A stretch of 32,000 bases of DNA. Source: Deinococcus radiodurans R1 = ATCC 13939 = DSM 20539. GTDB taxonomy: Bacteria > Deinococcota > Deinococci > Deinococcales > Deinococcaceae. The notes beneath the pieces are model-generated. The model ran no database searches, had not been told where the DNA came from, and saw nothing but the letters and a program-made list of their open reading frames with translations. Location of the stretch: NCBI RefSeq assembly GCF_000008565.1, contig NC_000958.1, positions 30,001 through 62,000 of the forward strand. Direction: 5' to 3'. Made by a program: the position numbers and the translations under genes. This document shows positions 3,420 through 23,286 of this stretch, in pieces; position 1 is the first letter of the stretch; every line of letters starts with the position of its first letter.

Positions 3420-3917
3420 TTATTGAATGATGATGCCACCGGCAGGTTGCATCTGCTTGTCGGTTATTAGACGGTAAGTGGGCGTGGGGGCCTGACCTGA
3501 CAGTTCCTTAGGAAGTGAGTGGGTCAAACCGCTGGCATAGAATCCTTGCCAGTCGAGCTGATTGGACGTTCGGTGGGTCAGCAGCAACTGTAACGTGTTG
3601 TAGGCGTAGGCGCCCATGCGGATTTCGGTGCCGGGGGAGAATTTACGCTGTTGGATCTGAGTAATGAGCAACTCGAGCCTCATGGCGAGCCGGCCTGCAA
3701 TAAATGGATCTGACGCAGGACTTCTCTGTGCAGGGGTCACATCGACATTCTGTTCCTTTTTTGATGGAACCAAAACACAGGGTTCGGTACGACTTCCGGT
3801 AGGTGTTGCCGGATCCCTCCTGAGCAGTGCTACAACTTCTTCTAACTTGTGACTGAAGCATGAATCCGAGGTGGCCGATGAAGAAAAAACAGTTTCTCCT
3901 GCTGTCAGGGACAGCAC
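3420..3917 (-). CDS. Hypothetical protein; weak call with uncertain start (alternative ATG at 3683)
   Basis: ORF in a visibly lower-G+C patch, with no motif I recognise and no clear Shine-Dalgarno (SD) sequence. The full-length version would overlap the 5' end of the divergent esterase-BVMO gene. Confidence 0.3.
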   Translation of the reverse strand: MLSLTAGETVFSSSATSDSCFSHKLEEVVALLRRDPATPTGSRTEPCVLVPSKKEQNVDVTPAQRSPASDPFIAGRLAMRLELLITQIQQRKFSPGTEIRMGAYAYNTLQLLLTHRTSNQLDWQGFYASGLTHSLPKELSGQAPTPTYRLITDKQMQPAGGIIIQ

Positions 3918-6379
3918 TGGCGGCGGCGTGGCTCAACTCTAAACGCGCCCGCACCGCCGCTCAGGTGCCTGCCGACCTCCGCTCTGCACTCACCATCTTC
4001 CGTACGCCGTCCTACACGCCTGGGAATTTGCGCCTGCTGCGCTCTGGCACACTGAAAGCCAGCGAAATTCACCCTGACGTACAGGTCAGGCATGAGACCA
4101 TTCCCGGCCCGCCCGGAGCGCCAGCCGTTCCCGTCTTCGTGTACCTGCCCCGTCAGCGGCAAGGGGTGACTCCGGCTCTGTTTTACACGCATGGGGGCGG
4201 CTTCATCGCCCATTCTGCTGCGTTTTATCACCGCGTCTGTTCAGGGTACGCCGCGGCGCTCGGCGTCCCTGTGATCAGTCCCGACTACCGCTTGGCACCG
4301 GAAACGCCTTTTCCCGGCCCGCTCGAAGACGTGTACGCTGCGCTGAAATGGACGTTCACCCAGGCCGCGCCTCTGAGCATTGACCCAGAGCGCGTCGCTC
4401 TCGCGGGTGAGAGTGCAGGTGGAGGTCTCACCGCGTGCCTCGCACAACTGGCCCATGACCGGGGCGAGGTCCGGCCCGCCTTTCAGGCCCTCATCTGCCC
4501 GATGTTAGATGAACGCACGGTCCTCAAAACCGACTGGCAAGGTCGCGGCGAGTTCGTCTGGACACCGACGTCCAATCTCACGGGCTGGTCGTCTTACCTG
4601 GGATTCAGACCCGGCACCCAGACCCCGCCGCCCTATGCGGTGGCCGCCCGGCGCGAGGATCTGAGCGGCCTGCCGCCCGCCTGGATCGGCACGAGCGACC
4701 TTGATCTGTTCTACGACGAGAACCGTGAGTATGCTCGGCGTTTAATGGCGGCAGGCGTGCCCTGCGAGTGGGCTGAGGTCGCGGGCGGCTATCACGGGTT
4801 TCATCTCCTGAAGCCGGAGGCCGAAGCCTCACGGCAATTCAATACGAGTTTCCTGAGTGCGCTCCGGCGGGCGCTGGGGTTGCCGGATCAGAACACAGAC
4901 GCACTTCCCCGTGTAAATACCACGCCGCCCACGCAGGCCGCAGCGCTGGACGTTCTGATTATCGGCGCTGGGCTATCGGGAATCGGCGCGGCGCATCACC
5001 TCAAGACAAAAAATCCTGGCAAGACGTTTGAGATTCTGGAAGCCCGGCAGGCTATGGGGGGCACCTGGGACCTCTTCCGCTATCCCGGTGTCCGCTCGGA
5101 TTCGGACGTTTTCACGCTGGGCTACAGCTTCAAGCCCTGGCTGGGGCGCAAGTCCATTGCCGACGGCGGGGATATTCGCCAGTACATTCAGGACGCGGCA
5201 GATGAGGGCGGAATCACACCCCATATCCGCTTTGGGCACAGGGTCAAGAGTGCCGAATGGTCGTCGGAAGAAAGCCTTTGGACCGTGACCGCTGAACAGG
5301 AGGACGGCACGCCTGTTCTCCGACAGGCGAAATTCCTGTTCCTGTGTAGCGGCTATTACAGCTACGACGAAGCCCACCGTCCAGAGTTTCCAGGCGAGGC
5401 CAGCTTTCAAGGTCAAATCATCCATCCGCAGTTCTGGCCCGAAGATGTGGACTACAGCGGCAAACGAGTCGTGGTGATCGGCAGCGGCGCGACCGCGGTG
5501 ACGCTGGTTCCGGCGATGACCGACAAGGCCGCGCACGTCACGATGCTGCAACGCTCGCCGTCACATATCGCCGTGCGACCGCTGGTGGACGGGACCGCTG
5601 CCGCCTTTCAGAAGTGGTTGCCGGCGCCCGTCGCCCATGGCGTGACCCGCTGGAAAAATGTCCTGAGCAGCATTTTCTACTACCAGATTGCCAGAAAAGC
5701 CCCCGACCTGTTCATGAGGGGCCTGCTGGACGAAGCGCAAAAACATCTGGGTGAACGCTTTAACCCGGCAGACTTTACCCCCAGCTACAAGCCCTGGGAC
5801 CAGCGGGTGTGCGCCATTCCTGACGCTGACCTGTTCCAGGCCATTCGGGACGGCAAAGCGTCGGTGTTGACAGAGACCATTCAAACTTTTACGCCGCACG
5901 GCATCCGGCTGACCGGTGGGCAGGAGCTTCCGGCAGACATTATCGTGACGGCCACGGGCCTGAAGATGAACGTGCTGGGGGACATCGAGTTTGCGCTCGA
6001 CGGGCGTCCGGTAGACCTCTCGCAGACGCTGATCTACAAGGGGATGATGCTTTCAAGCCTCCCGAACTTCGCTTATGCTTTCGGCTATACCAACTCGTCG
6101 TGGACGCTCAAAGCCGAGCTCACTGCTGACTATGTCTGTCGCCTGCTGACTTATATGGACAGGCACGCTTTCCGCGCCGTCTCGCCGCAAGCTGACTCTG
6201 ACCTGGGGGAGCGCCCCCTTCTGGATCTCAACTCAGGGTACGTGACGCGCAGCCTGGACGTGCTGCCAAAGCAGGGGTCAAAGCAGCCCTGGCAGGTCTA
6301 TCAGAACTACCTGCTGGACAAATACGCCATTCAGGTCGCGCCGATCAATGATGGGACGCTGCGGTTTATGAGAAGGTAG
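3878..6379 (+). CDS. Fusion protein: alpha/beta-hydrolase (HSL-family esterase/lipase) N-terminal domain plus EthA-type flavin Baeyer-Villiger monooxygenase C-terminal domain
   Basis: Esterase motifs: HGGGF oxyanion motif (about 4190) and GESAGG nucleophile elbow (about 4405). A linker lies at about 4880-4945. BVMO motifs: FAD Rossmann motif VLIIGAGLSGIGAA, GGTWDLFRYPGVRSDSD, fingerprint FQGQIIHPQFWP (FxGxxxHxxxW[P/D], about 5404-5439), and a second Rossmann motif VVVIGSGATAV. Start is ATG 3860, ATG 3878 or GTG about 3964. Confidence 0.85.
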   Translation: MKKKQFLLLSGTALAAAWLNSKRARTAAQVPADLRSALTIFRTPSYTPGNLRLLRSGTLKASEIHPDVQVRHETIPGPPGAPAVPVFVYLPRQRQGVTPALFYTHGGGFIAHSAAFYHRVCSGYAAALGVPVISPDYRLAPETPFPGPLEDVYAALKWTFTQAAPLSIDPERVALAGESAGGGLTACLAQLAHDRGEVRPAFQALICPMLDERTVLKTDWQGRGEFVWTPTSNLTGWSSYLGFRPGTQTPPPYAVAARREDLSGLPPAWIGTSDLDLFYDENREYARRLMAAGVPCEWAEVAGGYHGFHLLKPEAEASRQFNTSFLSALRRALGLPDQNTDALPRVNTTPPTQAAALDVLIIGAGLSGIGAAHHLKTKNPGKTFEILEARQAMGGTWDLFRYPGVRSDSDVFTLGYSFKPWLGRKSIADGGDIRQYIQDAADEGGITPHIRFGHRVKSAEWSSEESLWTVTAEQEDGTPVLRQAKFLFLCSGYYSYDEAHRPEFPGEASFQGQIIHPQFWPEDVDYSGKRVVVIGSGATAVTLVPAMTDKAAHVTMLQRSPSHIAVRPLVDGTAAAFQKWLPAPVAHGVTRWKNVLSSIFYYQIARKAPDLFMRGLLDEAQKHLGERFNPADFTPSYKPWDQRVCAIPDADLFQAIRDGKASVLTETIQTFTPHGIRLTGGQELPADIIVTATGLKMNVLGDIEFALDGRPVDLSQTLIYKGMMLSSLPNFAYAFGYTNSSWTLKAELTADYVCRLLTYMDRHAFRAVSPQADSDLGERPLLDLNSGYVTRSLDVLPKQGSKQPWQVYQNYLLDKYAIQVAPINDGTLRFMRR

Positions 6380-6400: not shown

Positions 6401-8176
6401 CTATGCACGGGAATGTATAGAAGCTGGCTGCGGCAGAGTGCGGTTGCGGCCCTCGCGCTTGGCCTGATAGAGATGTTCGTCAGCCTTCAGCAGCAGTTGA
6501 GGAAGGTCGGCAGGCACCCCGGTGGCAAACCCTATGCTGACCGTGACGCCGCGCTGAGCCGCGATGCCGCTCCAGTCATGGTCGCGAATCAACTCGCGGC
6601 AATCTTCAAACAGTTGCCAGGCGGTGCGCTCTTCATTCACGGAAGCGACCAGGACAAACTCCTCGCCTCCGTAGCGGCCCAGCAGGCTGGGAGTGGGGGA
6701 GAGCGCAATCTGTTGCAAAAGTGCGGCCAAGCAGCGCAGCACCTCGTCTCCTGTAGCGTGGGAGAATTCGTCGTTGAATGATTTGAAGTGGTCGATATCG
6801 ATAAATCCCACGGCGATCTGCTCCGCCTGTTGTGTGGCGGACCATTCCCCACTCTGCTGTAAGGCACTGAGTCCTTCATCCAGCCCCCGCCGGTTCAGCA
6901 CGCCAGTGAGCGCGTCCTGCCGGGCGAGAATGTCGGCCTGACGCAACCGCTCCTGCCAGTCTACGTCGCGGGCGTCCTCCCTTTTAAGACGCTCGTGAAG
7001 CAAGCGCCGCTGCTGAGCGAATTCGCTGAGCCGTTTGAACGAAGTCTGGGATTCCTGCAAAGACTGCTGGGTGGTGCGGTAAGCCGACTGGTAGTCACCC
7101 TGACGGGCGTAAAGATCAGCTATCCCGTTTAAGGCCCGCTGAGCCTCGCGGAGACGGCCTTGCCCCTGCGAGATGTTCAGGCAGATCTGGTACTGCTGGA
7201 TCGCCAGGTCCCATCTTTCCTACATGCTGTATGCCTCGGCCAGACAAAAGTGGGCGTAGGCAGAAACCCAGGTATCGCTGTGGGTGCCGAATTCAATGGC
7301 GGCCTCGCCATACTGAACAGCAAGCGCCGGCTCACCGCTGAGCATAAAGAACTGTGCCTGATGAGCACGAATGACCATCTCGAAGGGCGGTTTGTCGCTG
7401 CAAAAGTGCGTATTCGTCAGACACCAATCAAGGTGAGTCTGTGCAGCGCTCAGGGCATCCTGCATGGCCTGATCTCTTCCCAGCCGCTCCGCTTCACGCG
7501 CCTGAAGCAGCTTGACATGAAGGCGATTTTCGTAGAGGTAAAAGATATGGTTTTGCCGCAACTGCGCGTCGTCGGTCATGTGCAATTGTTCGGCCAGCAA
7601 ATTCAGGTGGTGCTCGGCGGACTCCAACTCTTCACTCAGAATCTCCAGCCAGGCAATGTTGATGTAACACATCAAGAGCTGCTTGACGTCACCTCTCAGC
7701 TCGGCCAACTCAAGCGCCTCCTGAAGATCAGCCCTGGCTCCCATCTCGTCGCCCAGCCAAAAGCGGGGAAGGGCGCGGGTGTTGAGCAGGCGGCACTGCC
7801 AGTCCTGTAGGCCTCGCTGCGTCGCGAGGTTGAATGCCTTATCGCAGTATTCCAGCGAGTAAGCGTAGTCATTGAGGTTGGCCCTGACCCAGGCGAGGGT
7901 ATTGAGCGCCTGGATGGTCACGAGGTCCGCTTGCTCCGCGTGCTTTTCCCGTTCGTCGTCCTGGAACACTTCCTCCAGCGCCAGCTCGCTCAGTTGTTGA
8001 GACAGCGCCAGATCGCTCTTTCTGATGGTCTCACTGAGGTTTTGCAGCAGGGTTGCCCGTTGTGTTCCTGATCCTGCGGTCTGCCACTCGGCCCACCATG
8101 CTGAAGAAAGCAGCGCCGGCTGCACCCTGGCCAACAAGGCGTTGATTTCCGGTGGCTCAGCCAGGGGAGAGGACAT
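6401..8176 (-). pseudogene. TPR-repeat / GGDEF diguanylate cyclase interrupted by an in-frame TAG stop at 7220-7222
   Basis: ORFs 7220-8176 (TPR-like) and 6401-7060 (GGEEF motif RYGGEEFVLV) are in the same frame. My hand translation of 7061-7219 gives ERWDLAIQQYQICLNISQGQGRLREAQRALNGIADLYARQGDYQSAYRTTQQSL. That is continuous TPR-like sequence joining the two parts. Confidence 0.8.
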
Positions 8177-8304
8177 ATCTTGGACAGAGTATAAGAATCA
8201 TAGGGACCAAGAACGTAGGGTAAGAATGGGGCACTTCAAGGACCGTGTAGAGGCCTCTTTCCCAGCACAAAAGGGGACAACTTCGATTTGAATTTGTCGC
8301 AACC

Positions 8305-8352
8305 GGGGAAAACCATCAGTCGCTTCCATCAAGTTTGATAGGAGCGACTGAT
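8305..8352 (-). terminator. Stem-loop followed by a short U-tract downstream of the SDR gene
   Basis: Two 10-bp perfect arms, ATCAGTCGCT (8315-8324) and AGCGACTGAT (8343-8352), with an inner ATCAA/TTGAT pairing. On the minus strand the stem is followed by GGTTTTCCCC. Confidence 0.4.
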
Positions 8353-8472
8353 CACGGTCTCCTGAAAGTTTGGAATCCACAGAATCCGCTGGAGCCATTG
8401 CCAGTCCACTTCGGCTTGAATTGTCAAAATGGACTGGCCAATCGGTAGGGAAAAGGCCACCAGCGCGCCGCT

Positions 8473-9270
8473 TCAGTCGAGTTCACGGGCCCACGCCACC
8501 CCATTGATGTGCCCACCGCCATCGACGTAGAGCGTGTTGCCGGTCAGGTAGCGGCTGCCTTCCGAGGCCAGGAAAACGGCCACCGGGGCGATGTCGCGCT
8601 CGGGGTCTCCCAGACGGCCCATCGGGTTCATGGCGTCGGCCATCACTTCCAGTTCGGGATTGGCGGCGAACACGACGCGGGAAGCGGCGGTCTTCGCCCC
8701 AGGGAGCAGCGCGTTGGCCGTAATACCGTGTCGGGCCCATTCACGGGCAGCGGTGCGTGTCGCTGCCCGCAGGGCTTCTTTGGCGGTGTTGTATTCCAGG
8801 GTGCCGATGTGGGCATTGACGCCGTTCAGCGAGCACATGTTGATGATGTGGCCATACTGCCGGGGCGCCATCACTTCGAAGGCCGCCCGCATGCCCCACC
8901 AGTGCCCCAGAAAGCCCAGGTTGAGGCCGTGCTGTCAGTCCTGCTCGGTCTTGCGCTCTGCCCGGGCGAGGGTGCCGCCGCCCCAGGCATTGTTGACAAA
9001 GATATCGAGTGTACCGAAGTGCTGCGTCGCTTGCCGCACGGCCTTCTCCATGTCTTTCCGCTTGGAGGCGTCGGTCGGGACAAAGAGAGCTCGCTCGCCC
9101 AGCGCCCGCGCCGCCTGGGTGCCCAGCTCCTCGTTGAGCTCGGCAATGACGACCGAGGCCCCCTCTCTGACAAAGGCCTCCGCGACGGCGCGCCCAATCC
9201 CGTCACCGGCGCCGGTCACGAGAGCGACACGTCCCTGAAGCTGCCCCACCCCAGCCGCTGCATTGTCCAT
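8473..9270 (-). pseudogene. Short-chain dehydrogenase/reductase (SDR) interrupted by an in-frame TGA stop at 8935-8937
   Basis: The N-terminal part has TGAGDGIG (TGxxxGIG) and NNAWG. The C-terminal part has YNTAKEAL (catalytic YxxxK). Both ORFs are in the same frame. Read-through gives ..RKTEQD*QHGLNLGFLGHWWGMRAAF.., and the stop sits where SDRs usually have Trp (TGG). The likely start is ATG 9270 (MDNAAAGVGQLQGRVALVTGAG). Confidence 0.85.
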
Positions 9271-9588
9271 GCCCGCAGTATAATTGACGTTTTGACACCT
9301 GATCGAGCGGGCAAAAGGTATGGCCTGAAAAAGAACCCCCGGCTGGAGGGGTCGGGCAGCTCTAGGGAAACGCAGTGTGCAGCGGACATCGTGTTCCAGA
9401 CGACAAAAGGAGGCAACTGTCGGGGGAGCAGGCGAGGCAAAAGCCAGGAATCTGGCCGTCAAAGTTTTGTGACAACGTAGCCCCTAGAGTCCATGGGAAG
9501 TCTGCCCGAGCAGGTTTCGGGGGAACGGGGCGATTCGGGAGCCGTCCACGTCTCCTGTCGGCGCTCCAGGTCACCCAGAGGAGAGAAC

Positions 9589-11664
9589 ATGAAGGCAAAC
9601 ATGAAACTGCTGGCGCTGCTGTGCGCACTCGGCAGTGGCGCGGCGGGGGCGGCGAGCACGAACACGATGACGCTGGCCGGGACGGAAATCACCAACCAGG
9701 CGCAGGCCACCTTCACGGTCGGCGGCGCCACGCAGACCACCAACTCGGACGCCGTCAAGATCGTGGTCAATGCCGTGCCGAGCTACACCATCACCAACGA
9801 CGGCACCGAGGCGTCGCCGGCGTACACCAGCACCGTCAACGTCAACTCGAACGCCACCTACAGCTACTCGGTCAAGAACACCGGCAACACGCCGATTCAA
9901 GTGGCGGTCGGCGCCACCGTGGGCACGGGCAGCAGCGCCATTACGCAGGTGAACTACTCAGGTGCGGCCACCGGCACCGTTCCGACCACCGGCGCGGCCA
10001 CCATCCAGACAATCACCATCAACCCTGATCAGACCGTGACGCTAACCCAGACCTTCGTCACGCCTGCGGCGCCCGGCACCTATTATGTCAACCCGACTGG
10101 CGTCTCCATGCAGTACGCCAGCGTCGCGGCCAATCCGGACGGCTCGGCGCTGACCACGGCGACCCTCGACCAGACCAGCAATAGGACCGACGTGAACAAC
10201 GTCAACAAGACGACGGTCCTGACCAATGTTCCCCTGCTCGGCAGCCCCACCCTGACCAACACGGTGGTGCCCAGCTCGCCCAACCCCCTGCCGCCGACCG
10301 GCACCACCACGCCCGGCACCGGCACGGGCCCGGTGGGCTCCGGCAACGGCCCCGCCGAGTCCACCGGCCCCGCCTACACGGGTATCGGCAGCACCAGCGG
10401 CACGCAGCCCCCGGTGGTCGTGGACGCCAGTGGCAACCAGTACGCCTACCCCAAGGCGGACGCCGAGACCGTCAACCCCGACAGCGTCACCATGACGACC
10501 ATCATCACCAACCCCAACCCCACGGCGGCGACCTATGAACTGGTGCCGGACCTGAGCGGGCTGCCCGCCGGGGTCACGGTGACCTTTACCGACGCGAACG
10601 GCAACCCGCTGCCCGACACCGACGGCAACGGGCGACCGGAAGTGACGGCGGGGCCCAACGGCGGCACCGCCACCTACAGGGTCGTGGTGACTTACCCCGA
10701 CACCGAGAGCGCCGCCGCCGTGGCCGGGCCCATCAGGATACCGGTGGGCGTAGACGGCAACCGCGACGGAATCGTGGACGCGACCGTGACCTACAACGTG
10801 CTGCTGTCCAACCTGAAGTTCGGCAACACCAACGGCACGGCGCTGGGCGTTTCCGACGTGCCGGTGACCCGCACCGTCACGCAGCCTTCGGTGACCACCG
10901 CCGTCGTGTTCCCGATGGACCTTTTCAACGACGGCGCCTACGACGGCAACTACGCGCTCTCGGGCAGCACTCCGATCGGCCCGGTGAAGTACTACGCCAC
11001 CAACCCCGACACCGACGGTGACGGCGTCCTGTCCCCCGCCGAACTCGCGGCGCTGCCCGCCGAGATCGCCAGCACCGGCGCCGTGCCGGTCAAGACCGAG
11101 AAGACCGTGTACGCGGTGGTCACGATTCCTGCCGGTCAGGCCCCCGGTGATTACATGGTCACGCAGACCGCCACCGGCTCGCTCAGCGGCACCACCAAGT
11201 CCTTTAACACCGACAAGGTCACGGTTACTTCGCCGAACGGTTCGCTGCTCATTGCCAAGCGGGTCACGACGCCGGGCACCACTACGCCCAGCCTGAACGC
11301 GACTGCCAATCCGGGCGACGCGGTGTCGTACACCGTGACGGCCACCAACAACTACAACACCAGCCTCTACGGTCTGGTGCTGCGCGACCCCAGCAGCAAC
11401 AACCTGGGCAGCTTCAGCAGCAGCAACGTCTTTGGCTTCATCAAGCCGAGCAGCCTGAGGGCAACGGTCAGCGGCGTCAGTGGCGCCACGGTGCTGTACC
11501 GCACGAGCAACCTGAACACCTGGGCCGCTCAGCCCACCGTGGACGCCAACACCACCTGGGTCGAGGTGGGCGTGGACACCAACAACAACAGCCAGATCGA
11601 CAGCGGCGACGTATTCCCGCCGAACGCCGTAATCACGCTGACCCTCCAGGGAACCGTCAAGTAA
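9589..11664 (+). CDS. Secreted Thr/Asn/Val-rich repeat protein (Ig-like / DUF11-type) with Ca-binding loops; first gene of the envelope operon
   Basis: SD-like AGAGGAGAG at 9577-9585, then ATG 9589. Signal peptide MKANMKLLALLCALGSGAAGAAS; the mature protein (after this signal peptide) has no Cys. Low-complexity linker PLPPTGTTTPGTGTGPVGSG. EF-hand/dockerin-like loop DTDGDGVLSPAE. C-terminal DUF11-like unit LLIAKRVTT..ANPGDAVSYTVTATNN..LVLRDP. Confidence 0.8.
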   Translation: MKANMKLLALLCALGSGAAGAASTNTMTLAGTEITNQAQATFTVGGATQTTNSDAVKIVVNAVPSYTITNDGTEASPAYTSTVNVNSNATYSYSVKNTGNTPIQVAVGATVGTGSSAITQVNYSGAATGTVPTTGAATIQTITINPDQTVTLTQTFVTPAAPGTYYVNPTGVSMQYASVAANPDGSALTTATLDQTSNRTDVNNVNKTTVLTNVPLLGSPTLTNTVVPSSPNPLPPTGTTTPGTGTGPVGSGNGPAESTGPAYTGIGSTSGTQPPVVVDASGNQYAYPKADAETVNPDSVTMTTIITNPNPTAATYELVPDLSGLPAGVTVTFTDANGNPLPDTDGNGRPEVTAGPNGGTATYRVVVTYPDTESAAAVAGPIRIPVGVDGNRDGIVDATVTYNVLLSNLKFGNTNGTALGVSDVPVTRTVTQPSVTTAVVFPMDLFNDGAYDGNYALSGSTPIGPVKYYATNPDTDGDGVLSPAELAALPAEIASTGAVPVKTEKTVYAVVTIPAGQAPGDYMVTQTATGSLSGTTKSFNTDKVTVTSPNGSLLIAKRVTTPGTTTPSLNATANPGDAVSYTVTATNNYNTSLYGLVLRDPSSNNLGSFSSSNVFGFIKPSSLRATVSGVSGATVLYRTSNLNTWAAQPTVDANTTWVEVGVDTNNNSQIDSGDVFPPNAVITLTLQGTVK

Positions 11665-11674
11665 CCGGGAGCAG

Positions 11675-11704
11675 GGGAGAGGGGCCAAGTGCGGCGCCTC
11701 TCCC
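11675..11704 (+). terminator. GC-rich hairpin 11 nt after the stop of the first operon gene (attenuator or terminator candidate; no U-tract)
   Basis: GGGAGAGGGGCC / GGCGCCTCTCCC arms: 11 of 12 positions pair, with a 6-nt loop. Confidence 0.4.
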
Positions 11705-11743
11705 TGTCCCTAAGCACTCAGCGCCCGAACATCCAACACGAGA

Positions 11744-11801
11744 CTCTTTTTTGATTTCTGCCTTTTTGGCTGTCTCTTTTTCTCTTTTTTCGTTTTTCCC
11801 C
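11744..11801 (+). other. 58-nt polypyrimidine (T-run) tract immediately upstream of the SD sequence of the second operon gene
   Basis: 51 of 58 nt are C or T. It contains five T5-T6 runs and the motif CTCTTTTT three times. It is followed by GAAGGAG (11802-11808) and ATG 11817. Confidence 0.4.
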
Positions 11802-11816
11802 GAAGGAGAATGCCCG

Positions 11817-14539
11817 ATGAAGTCCATGCTCAGACTCTGCCTGCCCCTGTGCTGCGCCGCTGCCTGCCTTGCCGGAGCCGCGCCGGCGGGCACCGTGATT
11901 CAGAACCAGGCCAGCGCCCAGTTCAGCCTGCCGGGAGGCGGCGCCGGGCTGGTGAACTCCGAGCCGGCGCAGCTGCTGGTCAATGCGGTCTGCCGCGTGC
12001 AGGTGACGCCGGACGGCACCCCCCAGGCGCCGGGGCAGCGGCTCACGGTGCGGGCGGGCGAGCCGGCCACCTTGCGCTATGAGCTGAGCAACGCGGCAAC
12101 GGTCCCGCCACCTTCACCCTGAGCGCGCAGGCGCTGGACGGCGCTTTTACCCCGAATCTCACGACCTTTGTGGACGCGAACGGCGACGGGCAGCCGCAGC
12201 CGGGTGAACAGGCCGAGCAGCTCACCCTCGGCGCGGGGGCGAGTGCAGCAGTATTGCTGGTGGCCGTCGTGCCCGCCGGGGCAAGCGGCGCGGCGCTGGT
12301 CAACCTGACGGCCCAGTGTCCGGGGGGGGCTCAGGACGACAACAACGTCGCTCAGCTCGTGGCCACGCCCCCACCGCACCTCGAACTTCGCAAGGCCTTC
12401 GGCGCCGAGCGGCTGCGGCCCGGTGACCAGACCGGCGTGACGGTCACGGCCACCAACACGGGGGCCGGCGCGGCGCCGGATGTGGTGCTCGAAGATCCGC
12501 TGGGCCAGCAACTGGACGCGGGGCTCGCCTACGTGCCCGGCAGCGCCCGAACCGACCGGGGTCGGCTGGAATACAGCGCGGACGGCGCGTCGTGGCAGGC
12601 CGCCGAGCCCGCCGCCGTGCGGGGCGTGCGCGTGCAGGCCGGCACCCTGGAGCCCGGCGAGCAGACCACCCTCACCTTCCGTATGGAGGCCCGACCCAGC
12701 GCCGAAAACCTCCTGCTGAACAATGTCGCCACCGTCAGCAGCGTGACCGGAGAAGGAGCGCAGGCCAGCGACACGCTCGACGTGCGCTTCCTGCCGGGGG
12801 TGGCCCTCGGGCCGCTGGGGCAGCCGCTGGCGCCGGAAGGCACCGCCGCTGACGGGCAGACTCTTGTCTTTGCCGTCACGGGCGAGCCCGCCTGCTTCGA
12901 CCACACCGTGCAAAACACCGGGGACGTGACCGACATGTTCCGCCTGAGTGTGAGCGTCACGCAGGGGCAGGCCACGCCTCAGCTGCTGGGCGCGGCGGGC
13001 GAACCGTTGCCGCAGCCCTTCACGCTGGCCCCCGGCGAGCAGCGGCAGGTGCGGGTCTGCTACGACCTGCGGAGCGCGCAACCGCTCACCGCGCAGGTCA
13101 TTGCGCAGGGCGAGCGCGGCACCAGCAACGCCACCGCCGACCTGATTCGCCGGGTCGAGACGCAGCGACCTGGGCTGCGCAAAACCGTGAGCAAGGTGGG
13201 CGCGCCGGACTGGGCACCGGGAAGCGCCGTGACCAGCGGCGATGAGCTGGAATACACCCTGAGCGTGACCAACCCCTACGCGCAGCCGCTCGCGGGCGTG
13301 CAGGTGCTCGACCCACTGCCCGCCGGAACCGAGTTTGTCAGCGCTTCGGACGGCGGCGCACTGCTTGGTGCGGCGAGCGCAGCGCAGGTCGCGTGGACCC
13401 TGGGCGACCTACCTGCCGGGGCGACCCGGACCCTCACGCTGCGGGTGCGGGTGGGCCGCGACGTGCGTGACGACCAGGAACTGCGCAACGTGTTCGAGCT
13501 GACCAGCAGTGAACTGCCGGCGCCCCTGCACAGCAACGCCGCGAGCGCGGTCGTCTGGAACACGGCGCCGCTGCTCAGCAAGACCCTCGACCGCCGCGAC
13601 GCCGCGCCCGGCGACCTGCTGACCTACACCCTGACTCTGAAAAACCCGTCGGCGAGCACCGCCCTGGTGGACTTGGTGATCACCGACACGCCCGCCGCGG
13701 CGCTGAAGTACGTGACCGGCACCAGCCGCCTGGCAGGTGTGCCCACCGCCGACCCCGCCGAGAACGGCGGCGAGCTTCAGTGGCGCGTGCCGCGGCTGGG
13801 CGCCGGCGAGAGCCTCACCCTGAGCTACGGCCTGCGGGTGCTGCCCGGCGCGGCGGGTGAGCTGCTCAACACTGCGGTCCTGCGCGGCTACGGCGAGCAG
13901 ACGCACGCCGTGGCGGTGGCGAGCAACCGGGCGCAGGTGAGCGCCACCCTCAAGCTGCTGAACTTTGCGCCGCTCGGCGACGTGCTGGGCACGGTGTACC
14001 TCGACGCCAACGGCAACCGGCGACTCGACGAAGGCGAAACGGTCCTCAGCGGCGCCCGGGTGGCGCTGGCGGGCGGGCGGCTGGCCCTGACCGACAGCCG
14101 GGGGCGCTACCACTTCGGCAACGTGGACCTCGGCACGCAGGCGCTGCGGCTCGACCTGGGCAGCGTGCCGGCGGTGCGCGACCCCGGCACCCAGGTGGTG
14201 CAGGTCCAGGGCCTGACCACGGTGGATTTCCCGCTGCGCGCGCTGGCCGCACTCCAGGTGAAACGTGACTTGAGGGTGCAGGTGGGCGAGTTGACCCTCA
14301 CCAAGCGCCTGACTGAGATTCCCGGCGGCTACCGCGTGACCACCACGCTTCAGAGCCCGGTCGCGCTCGCCGAGGTCGCCTGGACCGACCCGCTGCCCGC
14401 CGGAGCTGCCCTCGTGAGTGGGCAAAACGTGCGCCGCGAGCGCTTGAGTGCCGGCAGCACGACTTGGACCTACGACCTGCGCTGGAGCGGGCCCCCCTCG
14501 GCGGCGCTCACCGATCCCGTTCTCAAGGTGGTGAAGTAA
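11817..14539 (+). pseudogene. Large secreted DUF11-repeat / SdrD-B-like surface protein split by a 1-nt frame break near 12095
   Basis: Signal peptide MKSMLRLCLPLCCAAACLAGAAPA, with an N-terminal module paralogous to the upstream protein. Frame 0 ends at TGA 12120-12122. The next frame is open from 12083 and reads GNGPATFTLSAQALDGAFTPNLTTFVDANGDGQ.. into ORF 12170-14539. Several DUF11-type units are present (RPGDQTGVTVTATNTG.., SGDELEYTLSVTNP.., APGDLLTYTLTLKNP..), plus GTVYLDANGNRRLDEGE..TDSRGRYHFGNV. Confidence 0.75.
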
Positions 14540-17500
14540 ATGGCCTTCCGGACTCCTCTCTTTTCGCTGGTCACGCTGAGTGCGCTGCTGAGCATGGCCC
14601 CCGCCAGGGCCGCCGCGCCCGCCCTCACCCCTCCTACCCAGGGCGCCGAGCAGGCCCTCTCGGTCAGTACCCTGCGGCTGAGCTTCGACCTGAGCGCCGC
14701 CCGCGAGGAAGGCCAGGAACTCGGCGGCGCGGCGCTGTGGCAGGGCGGAGACCTGCTGGTCGCGCAGCCGGTGCCCGCCGGGGCGAAGGTGGTGCCGGGC
14801 AGCAGCCGGCTGGGGGACCGTCCCCTCCCCGACCCGACCCGCAGCGCCCGCGGCGTGCTGTACTGGACCGTGCCGCTGCGCGACCTGCCCGCAGGCGCCA
14901 GTGAACTCAGTTATCAGGTCACGCACACTCAGGCGGCTCGCCGCGCTGCCCGACGCGGCGCTGAGCCTGCGTGGTGACAGCGGCACGTTGCGGCTGGTGG
15001 GCAACCTCGACCCCGGCGACTACGGCCTGGCGAGCGCCCTGCCGGTGGACGGCGCCGAGAACCCCGGCAGCGTCAAACTGCCGCTCGACGGCAGCCAGTT
15101 GCGTCAGACCAATCAGTTCACGCTGGTGGTCGAAACGGACCCCGCCAGCACCGAGCTGCCCCGCGTCAACGGCGTGCCGGTGTCTGCCGCGCAACTCGGC
15201 CATGTGCGCCCCAGCGCGGACGGCCAGCGGGAGCGCCGCAGCTACTACGCCCTGCCGGTGCATCCGGGCAAGAACCTCATCGAGTTCGGCCGCGAGCAGG
15301 TCACGCTGAACTACGCCGGGCCGACCGTGCGCTACGAGGTCACGCCCCTGAGTGCCCAGGCCGACGGCAGCACGCCAGTGCGGGTGCGGATCCGGGCGCT
15401 CGACGCTGCCGGCCTGCCTGCCGAGCAGCCGACCGTGACGCTGCGCACCTCTGCCGAGCCGCTGCGCCCCGACGCCCGCCCGGGCGAGGTGGGCTATCAG
15501 CTCGAACTTCATAACGGTGAGGGCGTGCTGGAACTGCGTCCCCAGATCACGCCCACGGCCCTGCGTCTGGAACTGCTGCGCGACCAGCAGGTCAGCGAGT
15601 TTCGGGTAGACGTGCGGCCCGGCGGCGCGGCCCTGGGGGTGGGGCTGGTCAGCGCGGCGGTGGGGCTGGGGGGAACCCTGCCGCTGGCGCAACGCCTGCA
15701 CGTTCAGGCGCGGGCCTACTACGAGGGACCGCTGGCCGGCGGGCAACTGTACGTCGCGGCGGACAGCGCGGGGCTGCCCCGCGAAGACAGCGGCAAGGCC
15801 AGGGGCCTGACCTACGGCGACAGCAGCAGCGAGGCGGTGCCCCTGCGCGGCAGTGACCCGGTGGCCGCCCTCTACGAGCATCCCGCTTTCCGGGTGGCCT
15901 ACCGTGACCAGGAGGTGCCGGTCAACGTGGTGCCGCTGCCTGGCCGGATGACGGCCCTGAGTGCGAGCACCAAGGGCAACGTGCGGGTCTCGGGCTTCGC
16001 GGCGCTGCTGCCCGGCGACCTGGTGCAGGCGCAGGTGCTGCGGCCTGACGGCACCCGGCTGCTGCGGCTCGGTCAGGAAGACATTGCCCCGGCGTCCGAG
16101 ACGCTGACGGTGGTCACCCGCGACGCCCAGACCGGCACCGAACTGGGCCGCCGGGTGCTCACGCGCGGCGTGGAGTATGTGCTCGACGAGCGCACCGGCA
16201 TCGTCTCGCTCGCCCAGCCGCTCGACGCTACCGACGCCGAACTGCACCGCGTGGAGGTTCTCGCGTCCTACCGCTTGTCGGCGCCGCTGCCGGGCGCCAG
16301 GCCGCTACGGCGCGCAGGTCGAGGTGGCGACGCCCAGCGCCGGTTCGGGGTCGCCGCCGTGTCCCTGGATGGACGGGGTACCATCGGCGCGGCGGGCGAA
16401 CTGCGGCGCGGGGGGCTGCAAGTCAGCGGACGGGCGCTGCTCTCCGGCGGCGTGCAGGCCGAGGCCGCGCTGGACGGCCACTGGCGCAGCAGCGACGCGC
16501 TCAGCGTCCGTGCCCACTATCAAGACGAGGCCTACCAGGGGCTCGGCAAGGGTGAAGCGGGCCTGCGCGCCAGTGGCCGCTATCAGGTCATGCTGGGCGA
16601 GCGCCTGGGGGCCGCCCTCGACGCCACCTACCAGCGCGCGCCGAGCAAACAGGGAAGTGACGAGCAAGACGGCGGCGGGCAGGGAGAGGTGGGCGCCCTG
16701 CTCACCTACCGCGCGCAGCCCTGGACGGTGGGCGGCGGCCTGCGCTGGGGCTTCGGGAGCCGCAGTGGCCTGAGCGCCGCCGGGCAACTGGGTTACGAGG
16801 GCAAGCAGGTCAGCCTCAGCGTGACCCACAGCCAGCCGCTCAGCGGCACGGTGCGCCCGACCAGCGACTTCAAGGTGGCTTACCGCCTCACCCCTCACGC
16901 GGCGCTGGCCCTGACCGACCACTATGTCTGGGGCGACGCCCACAGCGCCGCGCTGACGCTCGACACCCGGCTGGGCAACGTGAACTACGCGGTGGCCTAC
17001 GAACTGCCCGGCGCGGGCGGCGCTGGCAACCGTGCCCGCTTTGGCGTGAGCACCTCTGTGCCGCTCGGTGCGCGCACCACGCTGGGCCTGCGCGGCAGTG
17101 CCCTCTACGACCTGCAAAGTGGGGGAAGCGAACTCGGAGCGGGCGCGGACCTGCGCTGGCAGGGCGAGCGCGCCGTGGCCACCCTGGGAGGCGACCTGGC
17201 CTGGCGCAGCGGCCAACTTCAGGCGGTGGTGCGCGGCGGTGTCAGCGGCGACTTGAGCGAACGGCTGAATGTGAGCGCCGACGCCACGGCGGAACTCGGG
17301 GCGCGTCAGGGCCTGAAATTCGGGGTGGGCTATGCCTACCGCAGCGCGGGCTTTTCCAGCCTGGGCTATGGCCGCTATGCGGGTGGCAGTCTGGGCGGTT
17401 CGCGGCCCGAGGCCAGCGCCGGCGTGAGCGCCGAGTACCGCCAGGGCGCCCTCACCGTCCGCGGCGGCGTGGACGCCCGCGCGCTGCTCAGCGACCCCGG

Positions 17501-17798
17501 CAGCCTGACCTACCAGCCCTCGCTGGGCCTGCGCGCCGAACTCAATGCCCGCTTCAGCGTGGGCGGCTGGGCGCGGGCGCTCGTTCAGCCCGCCAGCAGC
17601 CAGGTTTTGCCCGGCTACGGCCTGGAAGCGGGCGTACAGGTCCTGCCCGGCACCTGGCTGAGTGCCGGTTACAATCTGGCGGGCTTCGAGGGCCTGCCGA
17701 GCGCTGGCCTCTACACCCGCCCGGGCGCTTACCTGCGTCTCGACGTGGCGCTGGACGAGGGCGCTGGCAAGAAGACCGGCAAGGCGCACCGCCGCTGA
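14540..17798 (+). pseudogene. Signal peptide + half DUF11 repeat + Ig-like segment + large C-terminal beta-barrel; the reading frame appears broken near 14935
   Basis: ATG 14540 directly follows TAA 14537-14539, and the signal peptide is MAFRTPLFSLVTLSALLSMAPARAAAP. ORF 14540-14977 and ORF 14901-17798 overlap by 77 nt in different frames. Third-position G+C (GC3) switches frame near 14935. The large ORF has no signal peptide of its own. From about 16300 to 17760 the protein consists of short strands of alternating hydrophobicity rich in Gly, Tyr and Arg. Confidence 0.65.
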
Positions 17799-17826
17799 GG
17801 CCGCCGCCCAGCGCGGCGCCAGAGCT

Positions 17827-19563
17827 TCAGTCCTGAGCCGGGCCGCCCACCCACAGCCGCCGGAAACTGATGCGCCCATAGGCGTCGGGCCACACGTCGC
17901 GCAGGAGGGGGTGTACCGTGCGCTGCTTCACCCGGTGGTGGGTCAGGTGGACGTGGTGCCCTTCGAGCAGCAATGCCTCGACCCGGTCAATGACGGCTTC
18001 CCGACCGGCAAAGGTCTGGGCCAGGCGGTACTCCTCCAGTTCAGTGTCTACCTGGGCCAGTACCTCCCGGGGCAGCAGCTTACGAAAAAAGAGTTCGGGC
18101 TGCTTGAGCGCCGTCCAGAAGGAGAGCTGTTCGTCGGGACCGCTCACCTCACCCATCATCATGAGGTCGCTGGGCGTGTCCCGGGTCACCTCGTCGTGCA
18201 GATCGTACAGCTCGACGGTGATCTCCAGGCCGAACCCGGCGGCGCGGCGCGAGAGCCAGCGGGCCTCGGCCACCGCATCTTCGCGGTCAAGCACCCACAG
18301 CCGCAGGGGAGGCTGCGGGCCGGCGGCTGCCAGCAGCGAGCGGGCGCGTTCGTCCGAGTGAACCCGCGCGGGCCGGTCCCGCGAGCGCCGGGGATAAAAC
18401 GACTGCGCGCTCAGCAGCGGCCAGGGCTGGCGTGTCTCCTCCCAGAAGCGGCGAATATCGTGCAGTTCGAACACGGCGGCCCGCAGCGCCGCACTGTGCG
18501 CCGCCGGTTGCCCCGCATTCCAGATCAGGAAATGTACGCCTGTTTCTTCTTGCCACTCGGCGACCTTCTGCGGCGCGGCGCCCTCAAGATGCAGAGTGGG
18601 CGCTTCAGTGAGCGGCTCGACCTGGTAGAGCTCCACCTCATCGATCAGTGGCCGTCCGGCGAAATGCGCGTCGAAGGCGCTCAGGCGTACCCCGCCTTCA
18701 AGCGGCTGCCACTGAAATGCGCCTGTGCCGATCAGTTGCTGAGGGTCGGGCGGCACGTCTCTGGGCACGATCAGCGCCTGGGTCGCAGCGAGACGCCGGG
18801 GCAAAAAGGCGTCGGGGCGCGCGAGCCGCAAGCTGACCCGGTACGGGTGGTCGCTGCGCACCTCCAGCAGCTCCGGTAGCAGCCACGCCGCGCCCCGCTG
18901 CACCCTCTCCAGGCTAGCGCGCACGTCACTGGCGTCCAGCGTGCGGCCATGATGAAACGGCACCCCTTTGCGCAAGTAAAACGTCCACGTCAGGCCGTCG
19001 TCCGAGCACCCCCAGTGGTGGGCCAGGTGCGGCTCCAAAGTTTGCGTCGCTGGGTCGTAGCGGGTGAGGCCATCGAAGACTTGCAGCAGCAGGTGGGCCT
19101 CGACCGTGGCGAAGGCCGTCAGCGGATCGAGGCTGGTGTACTCGCGAAAGACGACGGTCCGGAGCCGGTCCACCCCACCGGCTGAGGCGCTCAGGCCGAA
19201 GATCCGCTGCACGTCGGGCGTCAGGACCCAGCCTTTGGGAAAGGGAAGCCGTGAGAGTCGGGCGAGTTCGCCAGCCGCCTGCCGCCGCGCCAGCTCTCTC
19301 GTGAGGGTCAGCAACTCCGGGCGCAGGTCGCGTGAGAAGGAAAGGCGCGAGGTGCGTCCCCGACCGCGACCAGGCGTATACGTCACTTTGCCTTCCGCCT
19401 GGAGCCGGGCCAGCGTGCGCTTGACAGTCTTGTCACTTTTGCTCCACCAGCCACGCAGGTCATTGAGGGTCAGCGCATAGCTGCTCTGTTCCCCGTCACG
19501 GGCAAGCAGCGCGGCCCGGAGTTCCAGATAGGGCCAGTCGGGGCCGGCAGCAAAAGGGGTCAT
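17827..19563 (-). CDS. SgrR-family regulator (N-terminal winged-helix domain + family-5 solute-binding domain)
   Basis: YLELRAALL..TLNDLRGWWSKSDKTVKRTLARLQAEGKVTYTPGRGRGRTSRLSF matches SgrR_N. The long remainder is SBP_bac_5-like (WTFYLRKGVPFHHGRTLDASDV). ATG 19563 is preferred over the 19725 start in the ORF track. Confidence 0.85.
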   Translation of the reverse strand: MTPFAAGPDWPYLELRAALLARDGEQSSYALTLNDLRGWWSKSDKTVKRTLARLQAEGKVTYTPGRGRGRTSRLSFSRDLRPELLTLTRELARRQAAGELARLSRLPFPKGWVLTPDVQRIFGLSASAGGVDRLRTVVFREYTSLDPLTAFATVEAHLLLQVFDGLTRYDPATQTLEPHLAHHWGCSDDGLTWTFYLRKGVPFHHGRTLDASDVRASLERVQRGAAWLLPELLEVRSDHPYRVSLRLARPDAFLPRRLAATQALIVPRDVPPDPQQLIGTGAFQWQPLEGGVRLSAFDAHFAGRPLIDEVELYQVEPLTEAPTLHLEGAAPQKVAEWQEETGVHFLIWNAGQPAAHSAALRAAVFELHDIRRFWEETRQPWPLLSAQSFYPRRSRDRPARVHSDERARSLLAAAGPQPPLRLWVLDREDAVAEARWLSRRAAGFGLEITVELYDLHDEVTRDTPSDLMMMGEVSGPDEQLSFWTALKQPELFFRKLLPREVLAQVDTELEEYRLAQTFAGREAVIDRVEALLLEGHHVHLTHHRVKQRTVHPLLRDVWPDAYGRISFRRLWVGGPAQD

Positions 19564-19617
19564 CTGCTGACCATTGTGGCTCTTTTTCCCCCTTTTCGTT
19601 TCTTCCACACTGGGGGC

Positions 19618-20874
19618 ATGTGGCGCCAACTGCATCCGAACATCAAAGTCCGCATCATCAACTCGTTTCTGACCCGGATGGTGGGCGGCGCCATTTTTCC
19701 CTTTATGGCGGTGTATTTCGCGCATTACCTCGGGGCAGGCTTAGCCGGTCTGCTGCTGATGGCGCTGGTCGCGGTGCAGTTCGTGGCGGGGCTCTACGGA
19801 GGTGGGCTGGCCGACGCCTGGGGCCGGCGGCGCACCCTGCTGGCGGGCGAAGTGCTGAAACTGCTCGCGTTCGCCGCTTTGCTGTTGGGTAACCTCTGGA
19901 CACCGCTTCCGTGGGTGACCTTCGCCGCGCTGGCGGTCATCAACGTCGCCAACGGCCTGATCAACCCCGCCGCCGAGGCCATGCTGGTGGACGTCAGCAC
20001 GCCGGACACCCGCACCTTCATGTACGTGGTCAACTACTGGGCGGTCAACGCCTCCTTGCTGCTGGGCACGCTGCTCGGCGGGTGGCTGTATCAGGATCAC
20101 TTCGCAGCGCTGCTTGCCGGTTTGCTGGGGATGTCTTTTGTAACCCTGTTTCTCGCCTGGCGCTTCATGTCTGAAACGCTGGGTGGGCTGCGCCGCACGG
20201 CTGCCCAGGTCCGGGAGAGCGTGGGGGTGCGTCCCCTATTGCGCAGCTACGCGCAGGTAATGACGGACCGGCCTTACGTCCTGTTTACCCTCGGGTTTGT
20301 CCTCTTGATGACCATCGAATTCGGGCGGCAGAACTTTATTCCGGTGCATCTGGCCCAGTCTTTTCCGGCGCAGGTGCTGTGGGGCGTGAACCTCACCGGC
20401 ATCAAGGTGATGAGCCTGGTCACGGCGATCAACACCCTGCTGATCGTGGTCCTTACCCTGCCGGTCAGCCACTGGGTAGGCAAAAGGGAACTGCGCCCGG
20501 TGATGGCGCTGGGTTTCCTGCTGTTCGCCGTGGGCTTTGCTGCCCTGTACGGCAGCCTGAACCTGTGGGCTTTGGTGGCGGGCAGCGTGGTGCTGAGCAT
20601 CGGCGAACTGCTTTACGTTCCGGCGCGTCAGACCCTGCTGGCGGACCTGATTCCTGAGGAAAAACGCGGCTCTTACCTGGCGGTGAACGGGCAGGTCTTT
20701 ACCCTCGCCAAGTGGCTGGCGACCCTTGGCGTGCCACTGGGCGCGCAAATCGGCGGGCCTTGGATGGGCGTATTAATCGTGCTGTTCGGCGTTCTGGCAG
20801 TGGTTCTAAGCCTGCGGGGTCTGCGGGCTGCCTCACCGGAGCGGACGCCTGAGCGCTCTGCACCGACTTTCTGA
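19618..20874 (+). CDS. MFS transporter
   Basis: About 12 hydrophobic segments. The loop 2-3 motif is GGLADAWGRRRTLL (MFS signature GxxxDRxGRR-like). ATG 19618 lies 54 nt from the divergent regulator start. Confidence 0.85.
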   Translation: MWRQLHPNIKVRIINSFLTRMVGGAIFPFMAVYFAHYLGAGLAGLLLMALVAVQFVAGLYGGGLADAWGRRRTLLAGEVLKLLAFAALLLGNLWTPLPWVTFAALAVINVANGLINPAAEAMLVDVSTPDTRTFMYVVNYWAVNASLLLGTLLGGWLYQDHFAALLAGLLGMSFVTLFLAWRFMSETLGGLRRTAAQVRESVGVRPLLRSYAQVMTDRPYVLFTLGFVLLMTIEFGRQNFIPVHLAQSFPAQVLWGVNLTGIKVMSLVTAINTLLIVVLTLPVSHWVGKRELRPVMALGFLLFAVGFAALYGSLNLWALVAGSVVLSIGELLYVPARQTLLADLIPEEKRGSYLAVNGQVFTLAKWLATLGVPLGAQIGGPWMGVLIVLFGVLAVVLSLRGLRAASPERTPERSAPTF

Positions 20875-22883: not shown

Positions 22884-23286
22884 GCTAAATCCCGAAGTGG
22901 TCGGTCTGGATCACACCCTGCTTACCGCGCTAAGAGACATGTCTGCTGCGAATCTGTCAGGTCAGAGCCGCCTTTCAGGCGAACGCCACTTCAAGGCATC
23001 AATTCCCAGCTTTTTGACAGCGCATTCAGCGCCGGATCTGGTCGCTCTCAATCAGGTTACAGATACGAAAGCACCAACGTTATCGCTTCGCCTGACGCCT
23101 CGTGGCTCAACGGTGTGGAACTGCGAGTGGACGGGGGCTCTTTACGCCGTTCGCCCTACTGTGCAGTTCTCCCTGGCACGCGCTCGGGTGAAGCACCCGT
23201 GGCCCAGCTCCTGAACTTCGGGCCGCATGCACCGCCTCAAGCTTGCCTGACCTCAAGCTGACTGCACTTGGTTCAACTGACGGAGT

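Follow-up and report, generated by a model that had tools for sequence, protein, structure and literature searches.

A Deinococcus radiodurans operon with divided CLIPPER domains, a candidate route to covalently linked surface fibres

The window analysed here, 32,000 nucleotides of the Deinococcus radiodurans R1 megaplasmid MP1 in its old assembly (NC_000958.1), contains a three-gene operon (genes DR_B0037 to DR_B0041) for two secreted stalk proteins and a third, very large protein predicted to end in an outer-membrane beta-barrel. In both stalk proteins, profile comparisons place the two halves of one isopeptide-forming CLIPPER domain (formerly DUF11) at opposite ends of the chain, and the operon appears to be a so far undescribed system for making surface fibres with covalent links. 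A literature search returned no published description of it, with DR_B0037 present in one proteomics table only and the Thermus genes TTHB179-183 not mentioned.

The three genes and their products

The region is 99.9% identical to 14 D. radiodurans plasmid pMP1 records, and in the resequenced pMP1 record genes 1, 2 and 3 are intact, with products of 691, 907 and 1086 residues (annotated as "DUF11 domain-containing protein" for genes 1 and 2 and "hypothetical protein" for gene 3). In the window, all on the forward strand, gene 1 (DR_B0037; 9589-11664) is an open reading frame (ORF) of 691 codons with the same start in RefSeq, and encodes the candidate major fibre subunit. Gene 2 (DR_B0038 plus DR_B0039; 11817-14539) and gene 3 (a 145-residue N-terminal fragment plus DR_B0041; 14540-17798) reach 907 and 1086 residues once repaired. 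In a base-by-base comparison with the resequenced record, a G is absent at 12094, which splits gene 2; gene 3 has a surplus G at 14935 and is one base short at each of 16279, 16304 and 16325. Four substitutions lie near these indels (in the stretch 16222-16325), and about 15 residues of gene 3 are scrambled. Because none of the frame breaks occurs in the 14 resequenced records, they are errors of the old assembly, and a pseudogene reading of genes 2 and 3 is ruled out. The TAA of gene 2 directly adjoins the ATG of gene 3 (AAGTAAATGG). The initial annotation, made from the sequence alone, had given the same gene limits and the same TAAATG junction, in agreement with the ORFs and RefSeq, and had restored the frame of gene 2; the breaks in gene 3 went unmentioned.

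A GC-rich hairpin follows the stop codon of gene 1 (11667-11710, forward strand), with a folding energy of -33.7 kcal/mol (z -2.64). A directly adjoining U-tract was looked for and none was found, and the hairpin is therefore not called by the terminator scan; it could act as a partial terminator or as a stabiliser of the mRNA. Neither the scan nor folding gives a hairpin of comparable strength after gene 2 or gene 3, as had been noticed at the outset, and over-expression of a major subunit by means of this hairpin is plausible from the arrangement.

The product of gene 1 consists of a signal peptide, an N-terminal hairpin, four immunoglobulin (Ig)-like domains and a Pro/Thr/Gly-rich linker. 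The mature protein has no Cys and is rich in Thr (17.5%), Val (11.2%) and Asn (8.2%). Its AlphaFold model has a mean predicted local distance difference test score (pLDDT) of 83.7, and the flexible linker (residues 239-271; 10303-10401, forward strand), whose length is not constant across the family, is disordered in the model (pLDDT below 50 at mature residues 216-248). A loop of the DxDxDG type (DTDGDGVLSPAE) stands at residue 474, and two more such loops occur elsewhere in the protein. The C-terminal unit remains sub-threshold in Pfam and TIGR01451 and scores 24-28 bits against the family profile described below. Thus the signal peptide, composition, PT/G linker, EF-hand/dockerin-like loop and DUF11-like C-terminal unit that the initial annotation had read in gene 1 are all found there. 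In Foldseek searches the model resembles tandem Ig-like adhesin stalks such as those of PrgB or antigen I/II. DR_B0037 is expressed and exported, mass spectrometry having identified the protein in supernatant from cultures of a tamB mutant with a defective envelope (PMC5382914).

A QxAYPKADA motif is kept across the gene 1 family (residues 284-292, about 10438-10464 in the window), with Q284 invariant and P288, A290 and D291 conserved to at least 90%; a possible reading is that this is the first strand, with its Lys, of an internal isopeptide domain. A reactive C-terminal Lys in the terminal "...VK" was considered and dropped, as family C-termini are K, N or Q.

Gene 2 encodes seven Ig-like domains in series, not interrupted by a long linker, and, like gene 1, is modelled as an Ig-domain stalk. 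A signal peptide and the hairpin precede a first domain; then come the three complete CLIPPER repeats, an SdrD_B-like domain and, last, a CLIPPER domain without its tail. The complete repeats (residues 187-325, 448-581 and 582-713; 12374-13954, forward strand) score 104-111 bits over positions 3-131 of the family profile, and each has a full Lys-Asp-Asn triad within one domain; residues 326-447, between repeats 1 and 2, form an extra Ig-like domain, not counted among these repeats. Pfam DUF11 (PF01345) recognises the three repeats strongly (E 6e-42), and TIGR04226, the isopeptide-forming fimbrial domain, scores 35.6 bits (cut-off 30). The DUF11-type repeats suggested earlier are therefore well supported; the SdrD_B-like unit suggested with them has a weak, sub-threshold match. 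The paralogy proposed for the N-terminal modules of genes 1 and 2 is borne out by 39-40% identity (E 1e-7 to 3e-9). The conserved C-terminus of most gene 2 homologues is ...TDPxxSWRY-COOH (T 98%, D 91%, P 100%, W 90%); the D. radiodurans protein ends in TDPVLKVVK (14513-14536) and not in TDPxxSWRY.

The product of gene 3 has a signal peptide, weak CLIPPER-like and Ig-like domains and then a very large beta-barrel. It matches no family in Pfam (E<=1), NCBIfam or the PDB sequences beyond weak sub-threshold scores; with neither Pfam at E<=1 nor NCBIfam did we observe an usher, autotransporter or intimin barrel. Membership of the usher, autotransporter, intimin or two-partner secretion (TPS) families was dropped on these empty Pfam, NCBIfam and PDB searches. 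The AlphaFold model (42 homologues; pLDDT 82.4, predicted template modelling score 0.66) runs from Ig-like domains through three long strands and a conserved beta-sandwich to 32 consecutive antiparallel strands that end at the C-terminus, that is, a barrel of about 34-36 strands with a domain inserted after the third. The three long strands occupy residues 364-408 (15630-15764, forward strand, as are the next two features; 259-271, 281-293 and 296-303 in model numbering). The inserted sandwich, plug-like by its position and among the best conserved regions of the family, spans residues 441-557 (15861-16211; 336-452 in the model, pLDDT 85-92), and the main barrel body follows at 16248-17756 (465-968 in the model, pLDDT mostly 85-94). 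Foldseek matches against the PDB are the barrels of LptD, MtrB, SlpA and TonB-dependent receptors, with probability 1.0, template modelling scores of at most 0.25 and root-mean-square deviations of 20-30 Å; no usher (FimD, PapC) is present among the top 50. Gene 3 is thus, on its modelled fold, very probably an outer-membrane barrel of an unclassified family. This agrees with the initial annotation as to the signal peptide and as to the barrel expected in the last 500 or so residues, and the Pfam and NCBIfam profiles place the protein in no characterised family. Two smaller parts of that description are weakly supported, namely a half DUF11 repeat (3.8 bits only) and an Ig-like stretch (sub-threshold Big_1 match).

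Word-indexed searches for homologues of gene 3 gave 41-42 matches, in Deinococcus only. In an exhaustive profile search the family has 2158, 1386 and 468 cluster representatives at E<=1e-3, 1e-10 and 1e-30, the weakest tier of which may partly reflect the Ig-like N-terminal part of the profile. The distant matches sampled are mostly metagenome proteins, and many family members have 1300-2700 residues. In most species the protein has about 1600-1800 residues, and many homologues have about 550 extra N-terminal residues that include CLIPPER-like domains.

CLIPPER halves at the chain ends and the cluster in relatives

DUF11 was renamed CLIPPER in a 2025 survey, and the structure 9IFR has an intramolecular isopeptide bond between Lys715 and Asn806, catalysed by Asp748 (PMC12617251). 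A family hidden Markov model (HMM) was built from 213 complete repeats of the gene 2 family, in which Lys10, Asp44 and Asn106 are conserved to 92%, 96% and 99%, with the triad spacing of 9IFR (K715-D748-N806). No chain-terminal domain of gene 1 or gene 2 has the triad within itself: Lys and Asp are C-terminal and Asn is N-terminal.

The first 35 or so mature residues are the most conserved part of both stalk protein families. In gene 1 they form a candidate donor hairpin (residues 27-62; 9667-9774, forward strand) that matches the two final strands of a CLIPPER domain and is preceded by no domain head; Asn36 lies at 9694-9696. The residues T28, T32, I34, N36, A38, S53 and V60 are invariant, and in 56 of 56 homologues the segment maps to HMM positions 100-128 with Asn106 at 100%. 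AlphaFold gives it two strands of 12-13 residues with pLDDT around 90. The equivalent hairpin of gene 2 (residues 23-58; 11883-11990, forward strand; Asn30 at 11904-11906) maps to the same positions in 71 of 71 homologues. For both genes together, 127 of 127 hairpins fall at positions 100-128, and the Asn is invariant or almost invariant. In gene 2 the first domain, which follows the hairpin, has an Asn-bearing tail of its own, so that the hairpin is surplus to the domain next to it.

At the other end of each chain stands a CLIPPER-type domain that stops before this tail. In gene 1 the tail-less domain and candidate acceptor covers residues 548-691 (11230-11661, forward strand), with Lys557 at 11257-11259, Asp600 at 11386-11388 and a conserved DTNxN...D loop of the Ca type. 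It matches HMM positions 8-95, where the chain stops; K557 is invariant in the family, and position 44 is Asp or Glu in 99%. In gene 2 the candidate acceptor is CLIPPER-like (residues 815-907; 14258-14536, forward strand; Lys830 at 14303-14305, Asp858 at 14387-14389) and aligns with positions 25-71, the chain ending after the F strand and before the Asn-bearing tail; K830 is conserved to 94% and D858 to 100% in the 71 homologues.

When the C-terminal domain is joined in silico to the hairpin of its own chain, HMM coverage extends to position 128 in both proteins, with gains of 9.7 bits for gene 1 and 4.3 bits for gene 2. Reversed or shuffled hairpins give no gain for gene 2 and a lower score for gene 1. 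The corresponding chimera from Thermus thermophilus HB8 covers positions 5-128 with 64 bits. From the mapping of the C-terminal domains and of the hairpins, each subunit therefore pairs a Lys- and Asp-bearing body at one terminus with the corresponding Asn strands at the other terminus: as far as homology to the complete repeats can show, the two halves of one CLIPPER isopeptide domain sit at opposite ends of the chain.

The gene order was scanned with one genome per species. Of the 80 loci obtained, which belong to Deinococcus, Thermus and Trueperaceae (a single genome often contributing more than one), about 75 have the trio in synteny. ORFs like genes 1, 2 and 3 follow one another in this order, with no change of strand, in almost all loci where the upstream sequence is long enough, and in some of them gene 1 is represented by two paralogues. 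The co-conservation that the initial annotation had proposed as a check on its reading thus holds, Thermus and Trueperaceae included. Clustering of all locus ORFs also yields a fourth gene, of about 165 codons, directly upstream of gene 1 in at least 41 loci (for instance at 3915-4490 in locus L006 and 11869-12363 in locus L082). Its product has a signal peptide and one tail-less CLIPPER-like domain (HMM positions 13-95) that ends at the C-terminus, with no hairpin, no Lys and a hydrophobic residue in place of Asp. Lacking these elements, it could be completed only by the hairpin of another molecule and could not lock it, which makes it, by its sequence, a candidate chaperone or cap. The initial annotation had recognised no chaperone, sortase or usher motif; this stands for the window, and most related loci do carry this chaperone-like gene.

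On plasmid pTT27 of T. thermophilus HB8 (L082, 11869-24360), TTHB179 is the fourth gene and TTHB180-182 are the counterparts of genes 1, 2 and 3; the barrel gene is also found in T. thermophilus HB27. TTHB179-182 adjoin the characterised exonuclease TTHB178, and TTHB183, downstream, is a DUF11 protein without the hairpin. A plasmid of Synechococcus sp. NIES-970 (L083, 8898-24339) encodes a 910-residue protein with both hairpin and tail-less C-terminal domain, an acceptor-only small protein and a 1543-residue protein that shares the inserted-domain region of gene 3 (31.6 bits). A very large DUF11 repeat protein lies downstream of this cyanobacterial cluster, and Kovacikia minuta (hit H24) is listed with the cyanobacterial clusters of the same design.

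Assembly of the subunits: a proposal, its alternatives and known systems

We propose that the operon builds a surface fibre from the two secreted stalk proteins. The N-terminal hairpin of one subunit would insert into the C-terminal domain of another and complete its fold, and an isopeptide bond would then lock the joint; the bonds predicted are Lys557-Asn36' from gene 1 to gene 1 and Lys830-Asn36 between the gene 2 acceptor and a gene 1 hairpin. The product would be a continuous covalent stalk of Ig-like domains, with gene 1 as the major subunit (as suggested by the hairpin after the gene and by its detection in mass spectrometry) and gene 2 as a minor tip or adaptor. Insertion or transfer of the hairpin, together with bond formation, would supply the driving force. 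Gene 3 would serve as outer-membrane conduit, anchor or both, doing the job of an usher without being one, and in relatives the product of the fourth gene would cap hairpins non-covalently, as a chaperone or end cap. We put the probability of this head-to-tail joining, with isopeptide lock and with export or anchoring by the barrel, at about one half. The earlier suggestion that a dedicated barrel exports or anchors the two repeat proteins at the surface is supported by the modelled barrel, by its lack of a known family and by the co-conserved trio.

Several points weigh against this proposal. At the level of Pfam the chimera gain is small (12.7 to 15.6 bits) and confined to one combination, the C-terminal domain of gene 2 plus the hairpin of gene 1; the family-specific HMM was therefore used instead, with a clear result. 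Mutual information with average product correction between the hairpin and each gene 1 domain, calculated on only 56 sequences, is enriched for no domain. The fourth gene is absent from the locus in the D. radiodurans window (8177-9588) and in its closest relatives. The CLIPPER-like domain of gene 3 does not have the Lys-Asp-Asn triad, and a part for gene 3 in binding or transporting subunits is suggested by synteny and fold only. Fibres of this kind have not been reported for D. radiodurans, and the protein-level evidence concerns gene 1 alone among the trio. Lastly, that joining takes place between molecules, and not within one, is something we infer from sequence features.

This last point leads to an alternative that is unlikely but the least so of those considered: the hairpin would complete the C-terminal domain of its own chain, as in a CLIPPER domain that is circularly permuted and has the remaining domains as an insert, and the product would be a covalently closed monomeric envelope protein or adhesin that gene 3 exports or anchors. 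The split triad fits such closure equally well. AlphaFold is confident about the hairpin in the gene 1 monomer, which agrees with self-complementation as well as with a homo-oligomer signal, and the 33-residue flexible linker of gene 1 could allow it. A ring of gene 2 would be strained, however, because seven Ig-like domains follow one another without a long linker. The first domain comes directly after the hairpin, as in ordinary tandem arrays, the acceptor-only protein of relatives can be filled only by another molecule, and operons with two or three paralogous subunits are usual for polymers. The acceptor-only gene upstream in at least 41 loci thus makes binding in trans part of the system and, with the rigid seven-domain gene 2, leads us to favour joining between molecules over closure.

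The hairpin might also be mainly a targeting or recognition signal read by the barrel, comparable to a TPS domain, in which case genes 1 and 2 would be separate monomeric adhesins whose tail-less domains are stable as such. It is indeed the sole highly conserved element common to both cargo families, and the barrel is the sole other universally linked gene. But this leaves unexplained why the hairpin is homologous to a CLIPPER tail with an invariant Asn and why the conservation of the orphan Lys and Asp equals that in complete domains; further, Pfam shows neither a POTRA nor a TPS-type domain in gene 3, and we regard this explanation as improbable. Slightly less probable again is an autotransporter-like or SlpA-like gene 3 whose task is to display or anchor the Ig-like domains at its own N-terminus, with genes 1 and 2 as independent envelope or S-layer-associated proteins that have no assembly tie to it. 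The name [quoted passage not shown] that NCBI gives to some homologues, the presence of SlpA among the Foldseek barrels and the N-terminal extension of about 550 residues with CLIPPER-like domains in many homologues are in its favour. Yet neither an autotransporter nor an SLH family is matched in Pfam, the strand count of the barrel is about 34-36 against 12 in classical autotransporters, and the strict synteny of three or four genes over the phylum, with abutting or overlapping genes, indicates a functional unit.

The fibre proposal shares features with several known systems and coincides with none. An archaic chaperone-usher class is reported in Deinococcus-Thermus and Cyanobacteria (PMC4654587); by none of the tests made here is gene 3 an archaic usher. 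As in chaperone-usher pili, there are a major and a minor subunit, a large outer-membrane barrel with an early inserted domain, a small periplasmic Ig-like helper (in relatives), incomplete Ig-like subunits completed by the N-terminal strands of the next one (here predicted) and no need for adenosine triphosphate at the outer membrane. The differences are that Usher PF00577 and the PapD-like families are unmatched, only the position of the inserted domain being reminiscent; that the barrel has about 34-36 strands, as against 24 in an usher; that the donor is a two-strand hairpin and not a single strand; that the helper would accept a donor and not donate a strand; and that a covalent lock is predicted. 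No PapD-like chaperone gene is annotated in the window or in the resequenced record, and the small gene of relatives is of the tail-less CLIPPER-like type.

Similar in principle is BsaA of Clostridium perfringens, of the TasA family, with donor-strand exchange followed by an isopeptide lock (PMC11580942). There also, an Asn-bearing N-terminal segment enters the next subunit and is bonded to a Lys with the help of an acidic catalytic residue, and the polymers are stable to heat and sodium dodecyl sulfate. BsaA differs in its TasA-like fold (CLIPPER/CnaA-like here) and in belonging to a Gram-positive organism with no outer-membrane component, and the bond in the present system is only predicted. 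A TasA-like fold with an N-E-K triad is not found here, with no TasA-family match in Pfam and an Ig-like fold, and the principle alone is common. Thread filaments of Sulfolobus acidocaldarius likewise combine head-to-tail donor-strand complementation with intersubunit isopeptide bonds (PMC9715654), in an unrelated subunit family and with no outer membrane or barrel.

In CLIPPER-stalk fibrillar adhesins such as that of 9IFR (PMC12617251), the known triads sit within one domain of one long chain; the complete repeats of gene 2 are ordinary CLIPPER domains of this kind, with the triad. Orphan half-domains at both chain ends have no description among the known examples. In the CLIPPER survey the word "split" is absent, and intermolecular bonds appear as general background or discussion, never for split CLIPPER domains (PMC12617251). 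The gene 1 motif QxAYPKADA recalls the YPKN pilin motif of sortase-assembled Gram-positive pili, which are also covalent polymers of isopeptide-stabilised Ig-like pilins (a property only predicted here). Unlike these pilins, the two stalk proteins terminate in a beta strand (...TVK and ...VVK), with no LPXTG-type signal and no hydrophobic C-terminal anchor, and no sortase gene is found in the 28 kb annotated around the operon.

SpyTag/SpyCatcher is an engineered split CnaB2 domain in which a body with Lys and the acidic residue and a strand bearing Asn or Asp reconstitute and ligate spontaneously. The joint predicted here would be its natural counterpart. SpyTag/SpyCatcher differs from the present case in being engineered, in its CnaB fold and in its single strand; here both halves are on one polypeptide, which would favour polymerisation. 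Classical autotransporters (type Va) have a 12-strand C-terminal barrel and a helical linker; gene 3 has no PF03797 match, and no linker helix precedes the barrel in the model. In two-partner secretion (type Vb), TpsB combines POTRA domains with a 16-strand barrel and the cargo has a TPS domain; no POTRA, ShlB or TPS match is found in any of the three proteins. Gene 3 does not belong with LptD, MtrB or SlpA either, by PDB or Pfam sequence or by a close fold. The initial view that whatever mechanism operates would be unlike those of known pilus pathways holds in that usher, PapD-like and sortase families are all without a match.

There is a fair chance that a donor-strand fibre with an isopeptide lock and a dedicated outer-membrane barrel represents a distinct pilus class. 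The broader claim is more tentative and, in our estimate, rather doubtful as a whole: a new class of diderm pili, with sortase-free covalent polymers, a split CLIPPER domain, an acceptor-only chaperone and an unclassified export barrel of about 36 strands, present throughout the Deinococcota (D. radiodurans, T. thermophilus HB8 with TTHB179-182, and HB27) and in the same design on cyanobacterial plasmids. If true, it would be a new route of pilus or fibre assembly in diderm bacteria, joining two principles so far seen apart, usher-style outer-membrane export and an autocatalytic intersubunit isopeptide lock. It would also give a role to conserved genes of two extremophiles that are widely used as models, a cargo to a barrel family whose members number in the hundreds (the 468 representatives at E<=1e-30) and, from Thermus, natural and probably thermostable pairs of the SpyTag/SpyCatcher kind. 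The residues predicted are specific (N36, K557 and D600 in gene 1; N30, K830 and D858 in gene 2), and the prediction is thereby directly testable.

Surroundings of the operon

The G+C content is 72-74% in genes 2 and 3, 64-68% in gene 1 and 58-65% in surrounding genes (12001-18000 compared with the flanks). The 1.4 kb upstream of gene 1 (8177-9588) have no annotated gene; they include a remnant of a truncated short-chain dehydrogenase on the reverse strand (8935-9462; positions 1-87 of 195 of adh_short, E 1e-21) and a terminator-like hairpin on the same strand (9353-9334). Genes with a GGDEF (diguanylate cyclase) domain occur on both sides of the operon, at 6401-7060 (reverse strand) and about 21336-22886 (forward strand), and an SgrR-family regulator (17827-19725, reverse strand) is convergent with the end of gene 3. 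These neighbours could point to control of a surface structure by cyclic di-GMP.

Three deposits under Taylorella asinigenitalis (WP_162150133.1, WP_044971271.1 and WP_211246943.1) are partial proteins that cluster at 90% identity with the gene 1 and gene 3 products of D. radiodurans. They sit on contigs of 2-5 kb and are probably contamination of that assembly.

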